Source: Escherichia virus TH32. Taken from it: a DNA stretch of 64,000 nucleotides. The DNA lies in sequence record MT446405.1; one strand, written 5' to 3'. The notes below the pieces were generated by a model that saw nothing but the letters and a program-made list of their open reading frames with translations, had not been told where the DNA came from and searched no databases. Made by a program: the position numbers and the translations under genes. Shown here one piece after another: positions 18,973 through 59,935 of the stretch. Numbering within the stretch: the first letter of the stretch is position 1; every line of letters begins with the position of its first letter.

Positions 18973-19314
18973 ATGAACAACACTTTATCACAACTGCTAA
19001 TCTGGACTATCGCCGCTATCATCGGCACCGTTATTATGATGTCAAGCGCAAAGGCTGAAACGGATATTTGCGGCAGACTGATTTCTGAAAACGGTGAAAT
19101 TTACTATGGCAACTCAAAAGGCGATTACATATCACCTGAAGTTTGCGCTCAGAAGAAAGCGGAAATGCAAAAGCAGTATCATGAAGATCAATCTATATCT
19201 CAAGCCGCGCTGATTGAATTAAGTATATCAGCCATCATCTTTCTAATCGTTTTTATGCTCATTATTAAACCAAATAATGGCAGTAATCGTCATATTCCTC
19301 TCAAAAGAAATTAA
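18973..19314 (+). CDS. Secreted/membrane protein with N-terminal signal-like segment
   Basis: Internal Met with AAAGAGG RBS; MNNTLSQLLIWTIAAIIGTVIMMSSAKAE looks like a signal peptide; second hydrophobic segment near the C-terminus. Confidence 0.4.
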   Translation: MNNTLSQLLIWTIAAIIGTVIMMSSAKAETDICGRLISENGEIYYGNSKGDYISPEVCAQKKAEMQKQYHEDQSISQAALIELSISAIIFLIVFMLIIKPNNGSNRHIPLKRN

Positions 19315-45954: not shown

Positions 45955-46170
45955 ATGAACAAAGCCTGGTTAGCGGTGATTGGTCTGGTCCTTCTGGTTG
46001 TATTGGGATACACTATCAAATTTGAAGTTCCAAATCCTGCTGAGCCTGACAAAAAGATTGTCGTTGAAGTACCAGGCGCGAAAGGGGAATTACCAAAACC
46101 TAAATTCGAAGTGGTAACGCCTGCGCCTGAAAAACCGCAGGACTCTGATAACACCGTAATCAATAAGTGA
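45955..46170 (+). CDS. Small membrane protein
   Basis: 71 aa; N-terminal TM AWLAVIGLVLLVVLGYTI. Confidence 0.35.
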   Translation: MNKAWLAVIGLVLLVVLGYTIKFEVPNPAEPDKKIVVEVPGAKGELPKPKFEVVTPAPEKPQDSDNTVINK

Positions 46171-50758: not shown

Positions 50759-52278
50759 AAACACAAGGAATGCGCCACCAATTATTGGCGCTTGATAAAG
50801 CAGGCCGCAGAAAATACTTTGCTTATTTTATGGAACAGGGTCTTGGTAAAACCTGGACTGCTTTGGCAGAGTTTGAAAAACACTTCGCCGCTGGCGCATT
50901 TGATGCCATGGTTGTCATCGCTCCTAACGGTGTCCACTCGAACTGGATTCGTCGTGAAGCACCAGAACACCTTTCCATTAAATGGATTGGTCATTACTGG
51001 CGCGGAAATGACAAGATGAAAACTAAAAAGGGTAAAGCCATTTGGGAGAAGATGTTTGCTGATCACTATCCTGAAGGTGAAGTGCCTGCGCGCATCTTCT
51101 CATTCAACATCGATACTGTCAACACACCAGTCGGTTATCAACACATCGAGTCTGTCCTGAAGAAGTACCGCTGTTTGATGATCATTGACGAATCGACGCG
51201 TATCAAAAATAACACAGCCAAACGCTCCATCAAGGTTGTAGAATTGGGACGGCTGGCAAAGGCCCGTCGCATACTTTCCGGCACGCCGCTGCCGCGCTCG
51301 CCTGCTGATATTTACATGCAGTATCACTTCCTTGAAGCTGGCTTGCTCGGCACCAAATCGTTCCGTGCATTCAACTCTGAATTCACAGTGCTGCTTGAAG
51401 CGCACGACCCAGAGATGCAGGCCATTCTCAAGAAAATCGGCGGCAACGGTTATGGCATTCCGCAAGTGCCGCGCAAAGACCAGTTTGGCCGACCGATGTA
51501 CAAGAACCTTGACAAGCTTATCCGGCTGATGGAACCGCACTATTTTCGTGCAACAAAAGCAGAATACTTGCCTGACCTTCCAGAGAAGGTGTACAAGTTT
51601 ATTGACTTCGAGTTGTCGCCTAAGCAGCGCGATGTATACGATGAACTCAAGAATGAGTACAACTATTTGATGGAATACAAGGGCGAAGAAGAAAACGTCA
51701 AGTTTGAGATGATCGCGTCGCGCACCAAGATGAAGCAGGTTACATCCGGCTTTGTCAAGGTGTATGATGAGATGGTCTACATGGAAGACAACCCACGCTT
51801 CACGGCCTTTAAGGATTATGTGGAAGGGGTGTTGGAAGACGACCCAGAGCGCAAATTCATCGTTTGGGCCATCTTTAAGGAAGAGATGAACCAGATTAAG
51901 GAATGGCTTGAGTCTGAAGGCGTGGTCACTGGTGTATACAACGGTGAAACATCAAAAGAGCAGCGCGAGTTCTTGATTGATGACTTCCAGAAAAACACAG
52001 TCGCGAATGGTGGAACACAGGTATTGGTTTGCCACGCTGCAGCGGCAGGCATCGGCATCACACTTACCGCTGCTGACTTGGCAATCTATTATTCTTGCAA
52101 CTATGACAATGAGTTGCGCAAGCAATCCGAAGACCGAAATCACCGCATCGGCACCAAATCAAGCGTGTTGTATGTTGATTTTATTGGGGTTGATACCATC
52201 GACGAAGAAATTCAGCGTTCATTGAGTATGAAGTCTATGCTTGCTGATCACATCCTCGACGGCAAAAAGATGAATTAA
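50755..52278 (+). CDS. SNF2-family helicase/ATPase
   Basis: Motif I EQGLGKTWTA, motif II IIDESTRIKN, C-terminal helicase domain. Confidence 0.7.
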   Translation: MKTQGMRHQLLALDKAGRRKYFAYFMEQGLGKTWTALAEFEKHFAAGAFDAMVVIAPNGVHSNWIRREAPEHLSIKWIGHYWRGNDKMKTKKGKAIWEKMFADHYPEGEVPARIFSFNIDTVNTPVGYQHIESVLKKYRCLMIIDESTRIKNNTAKRSIKVVELGRLAKARRILSGTPLPRSPADIYMQYHFLEAGLLGTKSFRAFNSEFTVLLEAHDPEMQAILKKIGGNGYGIPQVPRKDQFGRPMYKNLDKLIRLMEPHYFRATKAEYLPDLPEKVYKFIDFELSPKQRDVYDELKNEYNYLMEYKGEEENVKFEMIASRTKMKQVTSGFVKVYDEMVYMEDNPRFTAFKDYVEGVLEDDPERKFIVWAIFKEEMNQIKEWLESEGVVTGVYNGETSKEQREFLIDDFQKNTVANGGTQVLVCHAAAAGIGITLTAADLAIYYSCNYDNELRKQSEDRNHRIGTKSSVLYVDFIGVDTIDEEIQRSLSMKSMLADHILDGKKMN

Positions 52279-52616: not shown

Positions 52617-52864
52617 TGAGTAAAAAAGTTCTGTTAATTGGGCCGCGTAACTCCGGCAAGACTACCAGTGCAAATAAAATTGCCGAAGTCATGGGACTTG
52701 CAGAAATATTTGAGCTTGACGGATTCAAAGTGCCAAACGGTTATAAGTTGCGCGATGACGTTGATGCCCTGTTTATAGCATCAAAACTTCCTCGCGGAAT
52801 CCGTCGAGAACATTTTGACATAGTCATTGAAATTAATAAGGGGTACATAAATGTCAACTATTAA
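52616..52864 (+). CDS. Small P-loop NTPase-like protein
   Basis: Walker A-like LIGPRNSGKTT. Confidence 0.4.
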   Translation: MSKKVLLIGPRNSGKTTSANKIAEVMGLAEIFELDGFKVPNGYKLRDDVDALFIASKLPRGIRREHFDIVIEINKGYINVNY

Positions 52865-53408
52865 CTGGGAAGATGATCTGCCGCAAGTAGCTCCTGAAAG
52901 TATTCAAGAGCGCCTTGCGCGCTTAGTATCTGAACTGGCAGAACGCCAAGAAGCTTTGACAGAGCTTGAAGATGAAGCTGATATGCAAAAGCAGCGCATC
53001 AGTGAAATCAAAACTGTTCTGCTTCCTGGCGTTATGGATGAGCTTGGTGTGTCCGAAATCAAGCTTGAGGACAAGACCAAAATCAAGGTCGAGTCCAAGG
53101 TGAACGCTTCAATCAAGAAAGAAAACGAATTAAAAGTTTTCGATTGGCTTGTAAACAACGGTTACGGCGGCTTGATCAAGTCCAGCGTCACGGCTGAGTT
53201 CGGTCGCGAAGAAATTGAACAGGCGCAAGAGATTGTTGCCGCGCTGCGTGAAGATGGTGTTGAAGCCACGTTGAAACAAGGCGTTCATTCTGCTACACTG
53301 AAGTCGTTTGTAAAAGAACAGCTGGAAGCAGGCAATCCAGTTAGTGAAGATATTAGCGTTTTTGAATACAAAGAAGCTAAAATAACCTTGCCTAAAAGCA
53401 AAAAGTAA
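52851..53408 (+). CDS. Hypothetical acidic coiled-coil protein (possible recombination-associated)
   Basis: 185-aa acidic helical protein located ahead of a 286-aa candidate annealing-type protein. Speculative. Confidence 0.35.
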   Translation: MSTINWEDDLPQVAPESIQERLARLVSELAERQEALTELEDEADMQKQRISEIKTVLLPGVMDELGVSEIKLEDKTKIKVESKVNASIKKENELKVFDWLVNNGYGGLIKSSVTAEFGREEIEQAQEIVAALREDGVEATLKQGVHSATLKSFVKEQLEAGNPVSEDISVFEYKEAKITLPKSKK

Positions 53409-53467
53409 TTTAACCTTTATCTTGAAATCAGGTTGCCACGAAACTTGATACTATAGGAAAATATCAA

Positions 53468-54328
53468 ATGTCTAAGAAAGAAACTACCGAAGTTGCAGTG
53501 AAAAACACCCAGATGTCCGCTATGGCTGATTTTGTCGACATGACCGATTTTGGCGCTGGTTTTGAAGGTGCCGATGCCGATGCGTATGCCATTCCTTTTA
53601 TCGTCGTCCTGCAGAAGATGTCTCCTATGGTCGACGAAGATGATCCAAAACACGTTCCTGGCGCAAAAGCCGGAATGCTTTACAACACCGTTACTGGTGA
53701 GTTGTATGACGGTAAGAAAGGCGTGCAGATCATCCCTTGCGCATTCAAACGCACCTTCATTCTTTGGGGCGGTCGCGAGTCCGACGATAAAGGCTTTAAA
53801 GGTGAATTTACCAAAGAGCACGTTGATGCAGAAGTCGCGGCAGGCCGCGCTGTTGAGATCAACGGTAAGGTATTCGTGCCTGACGAAAACGGCAAGGTGC
53901 ACGAGAAGAAATCGCCTTACTACGCAGATACACGCAACCACTTTGTGATTCTGTTGAACGAAGAAACTGGTGAATTTGGTAGCGCAATGCTGTCTCTGAC
54001 TTCTTCCATGATCAAGCCGTCTCGCATGCTGATGACCGCTCTGCAGCAGAAGAAAGTTCAGACTCCGCAGGGTCTGAAAACGCCGCCGACCTTTATGAAC
54101 ATCGTTCGCATGGGTACTGCATCCCAGTCCAAAGACGGCAACACATGGTCAGTTCTGAAGTTTGAGCTGGAAGGTCTGGTGCAGGACAAAGGTCTGTACG
54201 AAGTCGCCAAGGCATTCCACAACGACGTGGTTGGCGGCAACGTTAACATTGACCGCAGCAAGCAGGAAGAAGCAAGCGGTGCCGCTGGTCCTGTCAATGA
54301 AACTCCGACCGACGCAGAAGAGTTTTAA
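53468..54328 (+). CDS. Hypothetical protein (candidate single-strand annealing/recombination protein)
   Basis: 286 aa, size and position typical of phage recombinases; no definitive motif seen. Confidence 0.3.
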   Translation: MSKKETTEVAVKNTQMSAMADFVDMTDFGAGFEGADADAYAIPFIVVLQKMSPMVDEDDPKHVPGAKAGMLYNTVTGELYDGKKGVQIIPCAFKRTFILWGGRESDDKGFKGEFTKEHVDAEVAAGRAVEINGKVFVPDENGKVHEKKSPYYADTRNHFVILLNEETGEFGSAMLSLTSSMIKPSRMLMTALQQKKVQTPQGLKTPPTFMNIVRMGTASQSKDGNTWSVLKFELEGLVQDKGLYEVAKAFHNDVVGGNVNIDRSKQEEASGAAGPVNETPTDAEEF

Positions 54329-54346
54329 TCGACAATCAAATCAACA

Positions 54347-54374
54347 AGGCTGCCGATTGGCGGCCTTTTATTTA
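54347..54374 (+). terminator. Intrinsic terminator
   Basis: aaggctgccg-att-ggcggcctt hairpin followed by ttatttat. Confidence 0.55.
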
Positions 54375-54385
54375 TCTGGTGCATC

Positions 54386-54904
54386 ATGATAGAAAGAATT
54401 GTACCGCTCCTGAAGATTCTTGCCCTTGTTGGCGCGTTTGCCGCTGGATCATACGTTGAAGACCTGCAGCAAACCAACGCATCACTGACCAAGGATAATC
54501 AATATCTGAAATCGCTTAATGAGCGTAAGGACAAGATAAATGCACTCGAAGAGCAAATTGCATCTTTACAGGTTGAATCGGCATCGGCATATGAGAAAGG
54601 TCGCCAGGAAGCGCAACTGGTTGCTGATGACACTATTGCTCGTTACAAGTCTGGGAATATCAAGCTGCGCGCGCAACTCAGCTGCTCCCGTGAGTTACTC
54701 AGGCGTGTGCCCGACTCTGCGACCACTGGACGCCTCTCTATCCCAGAAGGAAACTGTGGACTATCAGAAGATGATGTCAGATTTCTTGTTCAGTTCGCCG
54801 CAGAAACAAATCGATTAAAAGAGAAAGTTAATAGCTTGATTGATACTTATAATCAGGCTAAAATAAAAATCGATCAATTCAATGCATCAAAGGAAAATAA
54901 ATGA
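54386..54904 (+). CDS. i-spanin (Rz-like)
   Basis: N-terminal TM (IVPLLKILALVGAFAAGSYV) followed by long coiled-coil; contains an embedded lipoprotein ORF in another frame. Confidence 0.55.
   Translation: MIERIVPLLKILALVGAFAAGSYVEDLQQTNASLTKDNQYLKSLNERKDKINALEEQIASLQVESASAYEKGRQEAQLVADDTIARYKSGNIKLRAQLSCSRELLRRVPDSATTGRLSIPEGNCGLSEDDVRFLVQFAAETNRLKEKVNSLIDTYNQAKIKIDQFNASKENK
54591..54818 (+). CDS. o-spanin (Rz1-like lipoprotein) embedded in the i-spanin gene
   Basis: Alternative frame: MRKVARKRNWLLMTLLLVTSLGISSC with lipobox I-S-S-C, Pro-containing mature part with a second Cys. Start could instead be at 54540 or 54627. Confidence 0.5.
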   Translation: MRKVARKRNWLLMTLLLVTSLGISSCARNSAAPVSYSGVCPTLRPLDASLSQKETVDYQKMMSDFLFSSPQKQID

Positions 54905-55494
54905 AACAGATTTATGCAAACATTCGCCAGTGGGCTTCTGACCGTAACATCATCCAAGGTTGCGACCTTAAGGACCAATACCCGAAGCTTATCAGCGAGT
55001 TTGGGGAGTTAACCGACCACGTTGATCAACTCCATGACCTTGTGTTCTTTGACCCTGAAATTGGATATACAGAGCAGGCCATCTGTGACCTGCAGGCCGC
55101 AATCAAGGACGACATTGGTGATTGTCTTGTTGTGTTAACCATCCTGGCAGCGCAAAACGGTGCTGAAATCGAAAGCATCAATGGCGGCGGTTGTGCCGAT
55201 AAAGGGGCGCACCCTCATTCATTCATTCTGCGTTTGGCAAAGACCCTTGGCCGACTTGGTGATGCGGTCGCTAAGAATCAGACCATGGATATTGATGTCA
55301 CTATCATGGCCGCAGTCGATTATCTTTCTGGTGTTGCTCACGATTACGGCCTGCGCCTTTCGGACTGTGCCCAGGCGGCTTATGAAGACATCAAGGACCG
55401 TAAAGGCGTGATGTATAACGGAACGTTCATCAAGTCGACTGATTCAACCTATGCTTATGCCATGGAACAAGTAATGAATGAGGGGAAAGAGTGA
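54901..55494 (+). CDS. MazG-like nucleotide pyrophosphohydrolase
   Basis: EExGE-type motifs LISEFGELTDHV and DDIGDCLVVLTILAAQNG. Confidence 0.45.
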   Translation: MKQIYANIRQWASDRNIIQGCDLKDQYPKLISEFGELTDHVDQLHDLVFFDPEIGYTEQAICDLQAAIKDDIGDCLVVLTILAAQNGAEIESINGGGCADKGAHPHSFILRLAKTLGRLGDAVAKNQTMDIDVTIMAAVDYLSGVAHDYGLRLSDCAQAAYEDIKDRKGVMYNGTFIKSTDSTYAYAMEQVMNEGKE

Positions 55495-56468
55495 TGGCAG
55501 GAGAGATCAAAGCGCTTAAGCCAATGAAAGGCTGTCAACGTAAGCAAATCATCGAACGCGGTGAAGACGTTCCGTTACCTTGCGGATTGTCATTTAAGGT
55601 TGATGGCATACGTGCTATGGCTTATGACAAGCTTCCTATGGGTACGTCTGGAATGCCGCTGCGAAACGTTCAAATCAAGAAAGAGTTCCTTTTCTTGGGC
55701 GATTTGATTTACGGCCTTGATGGTGAACTCATCGACGGCAATCCTAATGACAAGAACGTCATGCAGCAGGCATATACTGCGTGCATGAATACTGATGCAA
55801 TAACTAACTTTACATGGTGGGTGTTTGATGACTTCAGCGACCCCGATTTACCTTTTGAAAAGCGTTATGCGAACTATCGGGCTAGAGTTGCTGAGGTCAA
55901 TCAGTATCTCTTGGGCCATGGCCACAGACCATTCCTTCGCGCCCTTGAATACCGAAACATTGAGAATATGGATCAATACGCGGCAATGCAAGTCGAAGCG
56001 GACCAGCTTGGATATGAAGGCTTATACGGCAAATCGTGGACGGGCAAATACAAGCATGGCCGCGCAACGCCGAAGTCGCGTGATGTATGGAAAGACAAGC
56101 CGTGGACCGACGAAGAAGGACAGATCATAGATTTCGTCGAGATGATGGAGAATAACAACGAAGCGTTCATTGATGAGCTTGGTCGCACAAAACGATCAAA
56201 GGAAGCTGAAGGACTCGTTGCCAAGGGTTGTCTCGGATCATTTGTCGTAGTCAATCCAAAGTATGTAGATGAGAAGGGTGAGATGATTCCTTTCCGTGTG
56301 TCCGCAGGTTCAATGCCTATGGCAGAGCGGAAGATGCTTTGGGATAATCGCGAAAATTATCGCCACAAATACTTGACGTATAAATTCTTTAACTTTGGCA
56401 TCGTTGACGTGCCGCGCTCTGCGCTTTATAAATGCTTCCGTGATATTACTGATATGGAGTATTTTTAA
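55491..56468 (+). CDS. ATP-dependent DNA ligase
   Basis: Adenylation motif I KVDGIR, motif III LDGELI, motif IV EGLYGK, motif V lysines. Confidence 0.7.
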   Translation: MMAGEIKALKPMKGCQRKQIIERGEDVPLPCGLSFKVDGIRAMAYDKLPMGTSGMPLRNVQIKKEFLFLGDLIYGLDGELIDGNPNDKNVMQQAYTACMNTDAITNFTWWVFDDFSDPDLPFEKRYANYRARVAEVNQYLLGHGHRPFLRALEYRNIENMDQYAAMQVEADQLGYEGLYGKSWTGKYKHGRATPKSRDVWKDKPWTDEEGQIIDFVEMMENNNEAFIDELGRTKRSKEAEGLVAKGCLGSFVVVNPKYVDEKGEMIPFRVSAGSMPMAERKMLWDNRENYRHKYLTYKFFNFGIVDVPRSALYKCFRDITDMEYF

Positions 56469-56540
56469 CACACTGAATAAATAATTGGCGCGGATAATCT
56501 ATCCAGCCGTTTTATAGAATTTAATATACAGTGTGTACAT

Positions 56541-56570
56541 AAAGCCGGTTAATCCGGCTTTTCTTTTATT
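56541..56570 (+). terminator. Intrinsic terminator
   Basis: aaagccgg-ttaat-ccggcttt hairpin followed by tcttttattt. Confidence 0.6.
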
Positions 56571-56643
56571 TACCTTTCGTCGTATTTACTTTCAAAACCT
56601 TCGGCCTATACTATTACTATTCATAATCAAAAGGTGAATTATA

Positions 56644-57186
56644 ATGAAAGCTAACAAATTAAAGATTGTTTTGATCATCATCATGGCCATGCTGACAGTA
56701 ATATTCTTCACCAAAACTGCATCTGCTGAAAATATGTTTACGCCGCCGAATAGTAATGCAAAGGTGCTGACAAGATACTTTAACAACGGTCAATCTTTTG
56801 AGTTCTGCTGGAATAAATATGACGTTGTAAAGAGCAAGTTCGGCAAAGAAAAGATGTGTGTAATGAATGATCGCGGTCGACAGGTCGTGTCATTTGTTTT
56901 CGGAATGTCCATGGCAAAAGTTGATGCCCCTGAAATCGTTGTCAGGTATAATACATTGGACAGCGGCCTTGTCGACAAGACATACCCTGTTGCAGTAGAC
57001 AGCAGGACAGGCGGCGCACTCATACTTACTCCAGAAGATAAATCAGATGTCGTTAACATGCTCATCAACAGCAAAGACGTAATCGTGTTTTATCATGTTG
57101 AAGGCGTATCAGACTACCAAATGGCCTACTATCCACTGCCCTTAAGAGATGCTTCAGGTAATGTTAAGACACAGGACGTGCGTTGA
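56644..57186 (+). CDS. Secreted protein with signal peptide
   Basis: MKANKLKIVLIIIMAMLTVIFFTKTASAENMF; AAAGGTGAA RBS. Confidence 0.45.
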   Translation: MKANKLKIVLIIIMAMLTVIFFTKTASAENMFTPPNSNAKVLTRYFNNGQSFEFCWNKYDVVKSKFGKEKMCVMNDRGRQVVSFVFGMSMAKVDAPEIVVRYNTLDSGLVDKTYPVAVDSRTGGALILTPEDKSDVVNMLINSKDVIVFYHVEGVSDYQMAYYPLPLRDASGNVKTQDVR

Positions 57187-57413
57187 CATGGGTGGTAGTT
57201 ATGCAGAAAGATTTGGAAGAAAACAAAAGGCTGAAAAAGGCTTTGACGTCTCAAATCTTGTCCCTGTTGGTAAAGCTTATTGGGGAGTCAATTAGCAACA
57301 AGGTGGCACGGGCCGCGATTGTTGGCGTGATTGGCATGGCGGGGTATTACTTCGACTTGCCAGACATTGATACAAGCTCCGCGCCGCCCGTCCAGGTTGA
57401 AGCCGTAAAATAA
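57183..57413 (+). CDS. Small membrane protein (holin/antiholin candidate)
   Basis: 76 aa with one hydrophobic segment AAIVGVIGMAGYYF; adjacent to, but convergent with, the endolysin gene. Confidence 0.3.
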   Translation: MTWVVVMQKDLEENKRLKKALTSQILSLLVKLIGESISNKVARAAIVGVIGMAGYYFDLPDIDTSSAPPVQVEAVK

Positions 57414-57416
57414 ACA

Positions 57417-57436
57417 AAGGCCCATATGGGCCTTTT
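57417..57436. terminator. Bidirectional terminator between convergent genes
   Basis: Perfect palindrome aaaggccc-atat-gggccttt between the plus-strand block and the minus-strand endolysin. Confidence 0.6.
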
Positions 57437-57437
57437 C

Positions 57438-58082
57438 TTACATAACTGCTAGTGCATCCTTGTAACGCTTCCGTCGCAAATCCCCATGGTTAGCCGTATT
57501 CGGCGCGGCCCCGTTAATCCGCTTAACAGTCGAATCAAATGCACCCGCATCGGCAAGAGGAATACAGCCGCTATTCTTAAAGAACCATGCCGCGCTGTCA
57601 GCGATGTATTTTGGTTCAGTCAGAATATCAGGATTGTTCAATGCGTCATAGCCTGATTGCTTTGAATAATCTGCATAGTTATCCTTTCCAGTCAGCTGAA
57701 TGGCACCACGGCCACGGTACTTCCAACCGTCTCCCGATGCTACCGAACCGTTGCCCATGCGGTTTGCATATGTATTATTGGCGATTTCCATTGGTTTACG
57801 GGCAATCGACAATGCCAAGGAGTTGGGTGCACCGCCGAAACGACCGCTGGCGCTGTAACGGCTAGGCCATGTATTAGCAAGACCTTGAGCGGAATAATTC
57901 AAGTTTTCCACAAATGTCTTCAGACTGCCTGTTTCCACTCCTACGTTTGCAAGCAACGCCGCGATGGCGTTCTTGCTTTTGATTCCGTAGTGCTCACAAG
58001 CCTTCTTGAAAGGGTCCACCCATTTCTCTGCGACATCCATGCTGCATCCGGTCCCTTTAGATATTACGTTTGCATTAATCAT
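57438..58082 (-). CDS. Endolysin, glycoside hydrolase family 19 (chitinase-like lysozyme)
   Basis: GH19-type catalytic region including YRGRGAIQLTGKDNY and upstream E-rich catalytic segment. Confidence 0.65.
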   Translation of the reverse strand: MINANVISKGTGCSMDVAEKWVDPFKKACEHYGIKSKNAIAALLANVGVETGSLKTFVENLNYSAQGLANTWPSRYSASGRFGGAPNSLALSIARKPMEIANNTYANRMGNGSVASGDGWKYRGRGAIQLTGKDNYADYSKQSGYDALNNPDILTEPKYIADSAAWFFKNSGCIPLADAGAFDSTVKRINGAAPNTANHGDLRRKRYKDALAVM

Positions 58083-58090
58083 AAATCACC

Positions 58091-59935
58091 TTATGCGCTT
58101 CTGTACCAGCCGTTCAAGACGACATATCGCGGCAGGGTTGAGACAGCCGTTGGAACAGACTGCCCTGCGTTGCCAGTGTTACCGACCACATCGTGAGTGT
58201 GAGCGGGAAGGGTATAGCTATGGCTGTGATTGCCAGCGTAATTTATATTCAACCCATGGGTGTGTGACCCAGAAGATTGGATATTGTGGACGTGGTTGCC
58301 GTTAGTCGAGGTGTTGTATTTGTAGTTATCCCAGTCGCCGCCCTTTCGACTGCCGAAGTTGTTGTGCGTATTGTCATACACGCCATACCGCGCATCATTC
58401 GTATTCGCCTCACCCCAGCTACTGTCATGGTGGTGGTTGCCTGCCGAATCCATTCCGTGCACGTGAGCACCGTTTTGACTGGTATCGCCTGTGTGGTTAT
58501 GGCTGCCCGCATCTCCAGTGGTATTTGACCATGGACCGCTTTGTCGCGTAGTAATGTTCACGCTGTGATTGTGCAGAGGAAGCATGGCGGCGGTAAGGGT
58601 GACGGAGTCCGCGCCGCCAGTGGCAAGACCGTTTCGTGCCGTGCCGGATGTTCTGATGACCATGTTATCAGGCAATCTGGTCCACACCTGTCCATAAGCG
58701 CCAAGCTTGGTGTTTGGGTTGGTGCCATTAGTCAAGAATCGAGTCTCACCGACTTCGAATACATCACCCATAGTGATCAACTTAGAAGCCAAATCATCGA
58801 GTTGACGCTTTGTCACAAACTGTTGCGGCTCACTAGCATCAACACCGATTTGCGCCGCGCCGAATGCTTGAAGAAGACGCCAGACTGTTCCGTCATAAAT
58901 AATGGTGAAAGGCAGCAGACCGACGATGGACCCTGCTGGCAACTCGCCGCCGTCGAATCCAAGGACGGCAACCTTGTTTGCACCAATGGTCACGGTGACA
59001 GGCCCAGTGGTCGTGACATCATTGACGATGGTCAGGCGACTACCTGCTGACGGAGGCCATGAATAACCTGCTGGAACGGTAAGGATTATATCTTGTGCGC
59101 CTTTACCTGATGCAAGATTCGGCGTTCCAATTTGCACGTCTTGAACAGTAGCATTTTGAATCCAGGCACTCCAAGCACCAGAAGTATAAGAGCGGGTGAA
59201 AACATATCCGTTCATTGACGTGTATTGTTGCAGGGCGAAAGTCTGCGCATCAACCTGCCAAGCGCAAACCTGGAGGCGACCTGCAGCCTTCGTCGCACCA
59301 ACCGCGTTCGGGATGTTAGAGCAGAGAGCGGCAACGGCGTCAGATTGAATGACAATAGTTGTGGAAGTCGTGATATTATCAAAGTCCACAAAGTTTGAAA
59401 TCAGTCCGCGAACAAAATACGGGTTTTGCGCATCGCCGCCAGCAGGCATAGGAATATACTTTCGCGCTTCGCTAGGCAGCGTTAATTCCTGCCAAGATTC
59501 CGTTTCGCCGTTGGCTGGTACGGCGCTGGTGTTGCCGTCAACCACGCTCTGGAAAATGCGCCACTCAGGCGCTGAAGGAGTTCCAGAGTTGCTTACCACG
59601 ATGGCGTTTTTCGGGTATCCATCTGGCTTCAAGTCAGACGAGAAATACTGTTGAGCGCCGTGGTCCTGGATGAACATCAGGTTGTCGGTGATCAGATTCA
59701 ACAACCAGTTCATCGACTCACGTTCAACCGCTTTCGCGGCGACGTTTCCAGCTTCCAGAGCAAGTGCATAGTCAGGGGTGTAGCCGCGCTGGAAGTTCAC
59801 ATAACCGCTTGGGCTTGCATCCGGCACCACGGATACATCACCGCTTTGCGCGAAAGGTCTGTTAATAAGTGTTGGCATTGCCGTTCCTCTACACGATGTA
59901 TTTAATTTTTGATAAAAGGGTCGATGCCCAATCAC
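58091..59935 (-). CDS. Tail fibre protein with C-terminal HxH repeat (metal-binding) domain
   Basis: C-terminal HNHSVNI ... HNHTGDT ... HVHGMDSAGNHHHDSSW ... HVHNIQSSGSHTHGL ... HSHSYTLPAHTHDV: repeated His-x-His motifs as in T4-type long/short fibre tips. Confidence 0.6.
   Translation of the reverse strand: MIGHRPFYQKLNTSCRGTAMPTLINRPFAQSGDVSVVPDASPSGYVNFQRGYTPDYALALEAGNVAAKAVERESMNWLLNLITDNLMFIQDHGAQQYFSSDLKPDGYPKNAIVVSNSGTPSAPEWRIFQSVVDGNTSAVPANGETESWQELTLPSEARKYIPMPAGGDAQNPYFVRGLISNFVDFDNITTSTTIVIQSDAVAALCSNIPNAVGATKAAGRLQVCAWQVDAQTFALQQYTSMNGYVFTRSYTSGAWSAWIQNATVQDVQIGTPNLASGKGAQDIILTVPAGYSWPPSAGSRLTIVNDVTTTGPVTVTIGANKVAVLGFDGGELPAGSIVGLLPFTIIYDGTVWRLLQAFGAAQIGVDASEPQQFVTKRQLDDLASKLITMGDVFEVGETRFLTNGTNPNTKLGAYGQVWTRLPDNMVIRTSGTARNGLATGGADSVTLTAAMLPLHNHSVNITTRQSGPWSNTTGDAGSHNHTGDTSQNGAHVHGMDSAGNHHHDSSWGEANTNDARYGVYDNTHNNFGSRKGGDWDNYKYNTSTNGNHVHNIQSSGSHTHGLNINYAGNHSHSYTLPAHTHDVVGNTGNAGQSVPTAVSTLPRYVVLNGWYRSA

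Follow-up and report, generated by a model that had tools for sequence, protein, structure and literature searches.

The stretch at 54386..54904 of the window, by which we mean the whole 64,000-nucleotide piece of Escherichia virus TH32 DNA analysed here (MT446405.1), very probably encodes an embedded two-component spanin of a Wifcevirus-type E. coli myophage, acting in lysis in the manner proposed below. We follow the definition of this class given by Summer et al. 2007 and Kongari et al. 2018, and the locus combines a single predicted N-terminal transmembrane segment in the outer protein, a lipobox in the o-spanin, full embedding of one gene in the other, and periplasmic cysteines available for disulfides. 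Placement in a lysis cassette beside holin and endolysin, a usual though not obligatory trait of spanin genes, is not found in the window. We favour the spanin reading because of the sorting signals of the two proteins, their conservation, the dual-coding constraint on the overlap and the lysis-cassette context of the homologues.

The pair is already known and ordinary, and nothing about it is substantially new. Over 53400..58200, about 28 E. coli and Shigella myophages of the genus Wifcevirus share 91–94% DNA identity with the window, including TH35, Bas98-101, WFC, WFH, ECML-117, FEC19 and Mansfield; an earlier report describes Wifcevirus phages as PB1-like (PMC6753283). The catalogue of Kongari et al. 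2018 (PMC6139136) enters ECML-117 (97% identical) under embedded two-component spanins, while the Mansfield and Bas98-101 records annotate both i-spanin and o-spanin and RefSeq names the outer gene 'Rz-like spanin'. The i-spanins of Mansfield (CPT_Mansfield_057/058), Bas98-101 and ECML-117 are 95–98% identical to that of the window and the o-spanins 91–97%. Mansfield and Bas98-101 also share its coordinates, frame, start codon, lipobox and gene neighbours, and the window differs from these Wifcevirus phages by few substitutions, for example Arg for Ser at mature o-spanin position 3 and Met at precursor position 78. Lysis genes go unmentioned in the Mansfield genome announcement, and our literature search found nothing on the spanins of phage Mansfield or of Wifcevirus.

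The outer gene encodes a predicted i-spanin

The outer gene (54386..54904, + strand) is preceded by a weak ribosome-binding site and encodes 172 aa, with an N-terminal membrane helix predicted at about residues 5–24. This is the single hydrophobic segment of the protein (Kyte-Doolittle 17-residue mean 2.14), no further segment rising above threshold in a scan of all 172 residues, and it is also helical in an AlphaFold2 model built from six input sequences (mean pLDDT 79.7). The model places helices at residues 5–106 and 128–171 on either side of an unstructured linker (107–127), so the periplasmic domain is predicted to be mainly alpha-helical, with two helices and a linker between them. A crude test for heptad periodicity was significant for the C-terminal helix (P ~0.02) and gave no support for a single-register coiled coil in helix 1 (P = 0.42). 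The sequence-only reading of this DNA had described the i-spanin as a transmembrane segment plus coiled coil; a transmembrane segment is predicted, the helices are well supported, and the coiled coil is supported only in part, by the heptad signal of helix 2.

Among protein families, the outer protein matches the PHROG family phrog_1327, 'Rz-like spanin' (E = 1e-25), with residues 6–160 aligned to positions 9–156 of the 158 in the profile. Pfam, NCBIfam and PDB sequence searches with both window proteins returned no significant match, and the weak PDB matches to SYNZIP coiled coils (E ~0.06) were rejected, the similarity being compositional only. Two cysteines lie in the predicted periplasmic part: Cys100 is invariant in every aligned relative, including the widest alignment (A3), and Cys124 is invariant in the alignments A1 and A2 and absent from the invariant columns of A3, to which Burkholderia phage Mica was added.

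The embedded gene encodes a predicted o-spanin

Wholly within 54386..54904 and in the +1 frame lies the o-spanin gene (54540..54818, + strand, 92 aa), which is annotated in Bas98-101 and Mansfield; the embedded lipoprotein reading frame with the lipobox ISSC that had been noticed from the letters alone is real as described. Its predicted signal peptide has a long, very basic n-region followed by a hydrophobic stretch and ends in LLVTSLGISSC. Lipobox prediction had been proposed as a check on the claim, and this segment matches the PROSITE-type pattern, with cleavage predicted between LGISS and C; the precursor thus reads MHSKSKLHLYRLNRHRHMRKVARKRNWLLMTLLLVTSLGISS up to the cleavage site and CARNS... 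from there on. The lipobox occupies residues 40–43 of the inner reading frame (54657..54668, +), the codon of the predicted lipidated cysteine, Cys43, falls at 54666..54668 (+), and the mature lipoprotein would comprise 50 aa (54666..54815, +). Its second residue is Ala, and the protein therefore lacks the Asp inner-membrane retention signal. The mature region contains proline, as had been claimed, although with four Pro in 50 aa it is not proline-rich. It has two cysteines, the second of which forms part of a CP motif and is invariant in the relatives (alignment A4), and it has no C-terminal hydrophobic segment.

A search of PHROG with the o-spanin gave a best match of E = 0.01 and no convincing family; the o-spanins of Yersinia phage PY54 and of Pantoea phage LIET2 match phrog_3198, 'Rz-like spanin', at about 1e-5. 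Six other reading frames in the window pass a lax lipobox filter, at least one of them (51977..52225) lying within the helicase gene but out of frame with it, and none of the six shows a basic n-region with a hydrophobic core behind it. We rejected a unimolecular spanin of the T1 gp11 type, as the o-spanin has no C-terminal transmembrane segment and the window holds no other credible lipoprotein signal. A unimolecular spanin of the PB1 type, with its AWAC lipobox, was likewise rejected: the one match in the window comes from a spurious frame within the gene for the tail fibre, and a search of the syntenic locus of Pbunavirus E217 found none.

Start codon of the o-spanin gene

We favour ATG 54540 as the start of the o-spanin, and consider it probably correct on comparative grounds. 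A Shine-Dalgarno-like AAGGA (54527..54531, +) stands 8 nt upstream, where a ribosome-binding site is annotated in Mansfield, and it is kept in all five Wifcevirus-like lineages, encoded in every one (5/5) as the Lys-Asp codons AAG GAY. The outer-frame codon that supplies the 'AT' of this ATG is AAT, TAT, CAT, GAT and AAT in the five lineages (Asn, Tyr, His, Asp and Asn), and the codon after it begins with G in 5/5. The inner ATG thus survives while the outer residue changes, which points to selection on this start, and the annotators of Mansfield and Bas98-101 use it as well.

Translation from 54540 would produce an unusually long signal peptide of 42 aa, and a variant of the same spanin pair, in which the o-spanin begins at ATG 54591 or both starts serve, is possible though rather unlikely. 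An o-spanin begun there would carry a classical lipoprotein signal peptide of canonical length (25 aa, MRKVARKRNWLLMTLLLVTSLGISS followed by C), the signal peptides of PY54 and LIET2 (19 and 14 aa) begin near the equivalent position, and ATG 54591 occurs in all five Wifcevirus-like lineages. This last point, however, is accounted for by the invariant outer Tyr69-Glu70 (TAT GAR). ATG 54591 also lacks a Shine-Dalgarno sequence upstream, whereas ATG 54540 has one, has been kept despite changes in the outer residue and was chosen by curators.

Conservation of the inner reading frame

Comparative evidence for the inner reading frame is much stronger than evidence from shuffling. When the codons of the outer gene were shuffled synonymously 5000 times with its protein sequence held constant, 312 shuffles (6%) contained an inner ORF of 92 aa or more, and 42 (0.8%) contained one that satisfies the lipoprotein (lipobox) criteria. 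In all 13 distinct Wifcevirus alleles the inner frame is intact at 92 codons, with its ATG unchanged, a lipobox reading ISSC or MSSC, and both cysteines. Third positions of the outer gene vary less inside the overlap (8/93) than outside it (17/79; Fisher p = 0.028), and 3 of the 21 observed changes are silent in both frames, against 9 of the 751 possible ones (p = 0.002), from which we conclude that the overlap is under dual-coding constraint.

Beyond the genus, a +1-frame lipobox ORF occurs in each of four metagenomic relatives (P0002–P0005), whose i-spanins are 52–66% identical to that of the window and whose gene order from polymerase to tail fibre is the same. It is also found in PY54, LIET2 and Yersinia phage P744, at i-spanin identities of 24–29% in the multiple alignment and 26–33% in pairwise comparison. 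Identity of the mature o-spanin, at 70–74% in the metagenomic group and 42–54% in PY54, LIET2 and P744, exceeds that of the i-spanin in every case, and the lipobox and a residue other than Asp at +2 are conserved across all relatives examined.

It is very improbable that the inner ORF is a chance frame and that the 172-aa protein acts alone or outside lysis, for instance as a component of the replication module anchored in the membrane: residence in a replication and nucleotide-metabolism operon with translational joining to a MazG-like gene, the appearance of long inner ORFs in 6% of shuffles and the lack of a significant family match for the o-spanin would fit such a reading, but lipobox ORFs are rare among shuffles, the ORF, lipobox and cysteines are kept in 20 of 20 lineages examined, the inner protein is more conserved than the outer under dual-coding constraint, and homologues lie in canonical lysis cassettes.

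Relatives in canonical lysis cassettes

Searches with tblastn using the i-spanin retrieved PY54 (6e-13), P744 (3e-9) and Mica (2e-6), and with the o-spanin PY54 (9e-6). ECML-117, PY54, LIET2, P744 and two Yersinia prophages have a common o-spanin motif, C-x(9-13)-CP-x-[LM]-x-x-[LV]-[DE]...D[YF][QK]xxMSx[FI]LF; a degenerate DNA pattern for this motif found the two Yersinia prophages only. The related spanin set is represented at L004:2471-2992, L005:3734-4234, L006:2501-2962, L027:648-1274 and L028:4515-5036. PY54, LIET2 and P744 resemble the window in the embedded +1 architecture as well as in the o-spanin motif, whereas the PY54 pair adjoins holin and endolysin and the signal peptides of PY54 and LIET2 are short. 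Kongari et al. 2018 entered PY54 and ECML-117 as separate singleton families (PMC6139136); going by the tblastn matches above, the two families are related, and they share the o-spanin motif.

The PY54 pair directly follows a holin and a glycoside hydrolase endolysin, and in Mica, where both spanins are annotated, a class II holin and a SAR endolysin precede the pair. In both Yersinia prophages an embedded pair stands immediately after the endolysin, in one case a phrog_7 enzyme and in the other a phrog_465 enzyme preceded by a phrog_126 holin. Among the divergent Wifcevirus-like contigs, L022 has a GH19 enzyme in the endolysin slot, as does the window, and in L020 and L021 the slot holds a 150-aa phrog_90 enzyme (L020:8065-8520, L021:8078-8530), which also shows a weaker match to a metallo-endopeptidase family. 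In L020 and L021 the endolysin has been swapped without a swap of the spanins, the remaining gene order being kept. To judge from these loci, the spanin family works beside at least five endolysin types, which fits the established view that spanins act after the wall is gone, however it was removed.

Comparison with lambda and T4

The window pair shares with lambda Rz/Rz1 an N-terminal anchor, a helix-linker-helix organisation, periplasmic cysteines, and a lipoprotein gene that is fully embedded and offset by +1. An Rz/Rz1-type embedded arrangement was what the sequence-only reading had proposed, and the sorting signals, conservation, cassettes of the homologues and curated annotations all uphold it; the resemblance of the window pair itself to lambda is architectural. 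The o-spanin differs from Rz1 in being longer (50 aa mature) and in having four prolines against 10 in about 40 aa, and unlike the lambda genes the window pair is not adjacent to holin and endolysin. Comparison of the o-spanin with Rz1 yielded nothing in BLASTP and no match to the Pfam Rz1 model.

For the i-spanin, hhalign matched a nine-sequence profile of the family to lambda Rz residues 58–150, first conserved cysteine included, at 72% probability (E = 3.4e-5); with the narrower Wifcevirus-like profile the probability was 0.4%. Against the Pfam Rz model PF03245 (Phage_lysis; gathering threshold 25.4 bits), Mica (62.4) and P744 (40.0) score above threshold and LIET2 (22.3) and PY54 (17.1 bits) below it, and the window i-spanin has no match at E <= 0.1 and so is not a member. 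The scores of Mica and P744 together with the wider hhalign comparison make remote homology to lambda Rz likely, and we regard the relationship between this family and lambda Rz as remote but probably real.

Phage T4 offers a likeness in position: the genes of its two-component spanin, pseT.3/pseT.2, are likewise not linked to those of holin and endolysin (Kongari et al. 2018, PMC6139136). The T4 genes are separate and those of the window embedded.

Genomic context and expression

The pair had been placed inside a replication block, and its neighbours agree with this. DNA polymerase III alpha, two helicases, a DUF7307 protein and a Pam3_Gp34-like protein are encoded upstream, and a MazG-like protein and an ATP-dependent DNA ligase downstream. 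A terminator-like hairpin (54346..54367, +), with a 9-bp stem followed by TTATTTAT, ends 19 nt before the i-spanin start, and a terminator is annotated at the equivalent site in phages WFC and Mansfield. This hairpin is the upstream edge of a unit made up of the spanin pair, the MazG-like gene and the ligase gene, and the next terminator-like site follows the ligase (56541..56561). The ATG of the MazG-like pyrophosphatase gene (54901..55494, +) overlaps the i-spanin stop codon (ATGA), so that the spanin gene is joined to a nucleotide-metabolism operon. No sigma-70-like promoter lies between the hairpin and the i-spanin ATG, and since a gap of 19 nt leaves no room for one, transcription probably occurs by read-through. 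The pair thus looks like part of a spanin, MazG-like and ligase unit that is reached by read-through.

The endolysin had been put on the opposite strand about 2.5 kb downstream, and we find it there: a GH19 enzyme (57438..58082, - strand; phrog_181, 1.7e-69) without an N-terminal hydrophobic segment, 2534 bases from the spanin pair. Searches of PHROGs and NCBIfam with the small membrane ORFs of the window assigned no holin. Among such ORFs without a family match are 18973-19311, with two hydrophobic segments, and 45955-46170, with an N-terminal one.

Two further genes lie between ligase and endolysin. The product of the first (56644-57186, +) is 180 aa long, carries what looks like a cleavable signal peptide (…TKTASA before the apparent cleavage site, EN after it) and has no Pfam, PHROG or NCBIfam match; the divergent relatives L020–L022 have a counterpart of similar size and position. 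The second (57183-57413, +), convergent with the endolysin gene, encodes a small conserved phrog_5165 protein with one weakly hydrophobic segment, and is also present in PB1-like phages (L012:7691-7942) and likewise at L020:7813-8034.

Proposed mode of action

By analogy with characterised spanins, we infer that the inner frame is translated, that its product is lipidated, and that the two proteins form a complex which disrupts the outer membrane. The outer frame would give an inner-membrane protein anchored by its N-terminal helix, with a helical domain in the periplasm. The inner frame would give a prolipoprotein with Cys43 as its site of cleavage and lipidation, and the Ala at +2 would let it be sorted to the outer membrane. 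As in lambda (PMC6139136), the C-terminal regions of i-spanin and o-spanin may bind each other, and the resulting complexes, linked by disulfides, may bridge the periplasm; the cysteines that such disulfides need, namely Cys100, Cys124 and the CP-motif cysteine of the o-spanin, are all present. The complexes would be caged by the peptidoglycan mesh until a holin and the GH19 endolysin clear the wall, and would at that point act on the outer membrane by fusing or disrupting it. Because a complex of this kind would be inert until the wall is gone, its genes would need neither timing nor placement with the endolysin. Their location in the operon agrees with this, and early or read-through expression from the replication operon would be tolerable.

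The same slot in related genera

Pbunavirus E217, Myosmarvirus Spe5P4 and Bcepfunavirus BCSR52 share the order polymerase, helicases, DUF7307, Pam3_Gp34, a gene X and MazG-like. The ligase comes next in E217 and Spe5P4, none is annotated in the BCSR52 stretch, and an endolysin lies further on in all three. Where Wifcevirus-like phages hold the spanin pair, X in each of the three is a gene for a 200-aa membrane protein of phrog_1544 (slot compared: window 54329-54904; L012:5289-5894, from E217; L011:5438-6043; L013:5408-6010). The phrog_1544 proteins have three hydrophobic segments, a Gly/Ala-rich one at the N-terminus and two at the C-terminal end, as well as a coiled coil, and their Pfam matches are weak (GTA_holin_3TM, E = 0.02). 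An embedded lipoprotein ORF is absent from the phrog_1544 gene in all three phages, and tblastn with the three proteins found no homologue in the window.

One may speculate that phrog_1544 is a functional replacement for the spanin pair, with a role in envelope disruption or lysis that has gone unrecognised, and that the slot is an ancestral position for a lysis gene in the replication module, but we consider this unlikely. The paper on the Myosmarvirus phage MTx found neither holin nor spanin, and a lysis role of phrog_1544, if true, would fit that report.

A different gene of this neighbourhood has been given a spanin label. ORF85 of Pbunavirus JJ01 (621 bp, beside a SNF2 helicase) is named 'U-spanin' (PMC9583000), and by size and position it appears to be the DUF7307 gene (window 52851-53408, + strand; L012:3627-4247). 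Neither the E217 counterpart nor the DUF7307 protein of the window has a lipobox or a hydrophobic segment, and for this reason the label looks wrong.

Significance for annotation and lysis gene placement

In many Wifcevirus records, among them EC150, RCIP0363, Ro157lw and the original WFC, the outer gene still appears as a 'hypothetical protein' and the inner one is missing. Conservation now backs the annotation of both genes, and the finding has little importance beyond correct annotation. What is new here is the kinship of the ECML-117 and PY54 spanins, the support from conservation for the start at 54540, and the different occupant of the same slot in related genera. As in T4, the spanin genes of the window are not linked to the endolysin gene, which adds one more such case.
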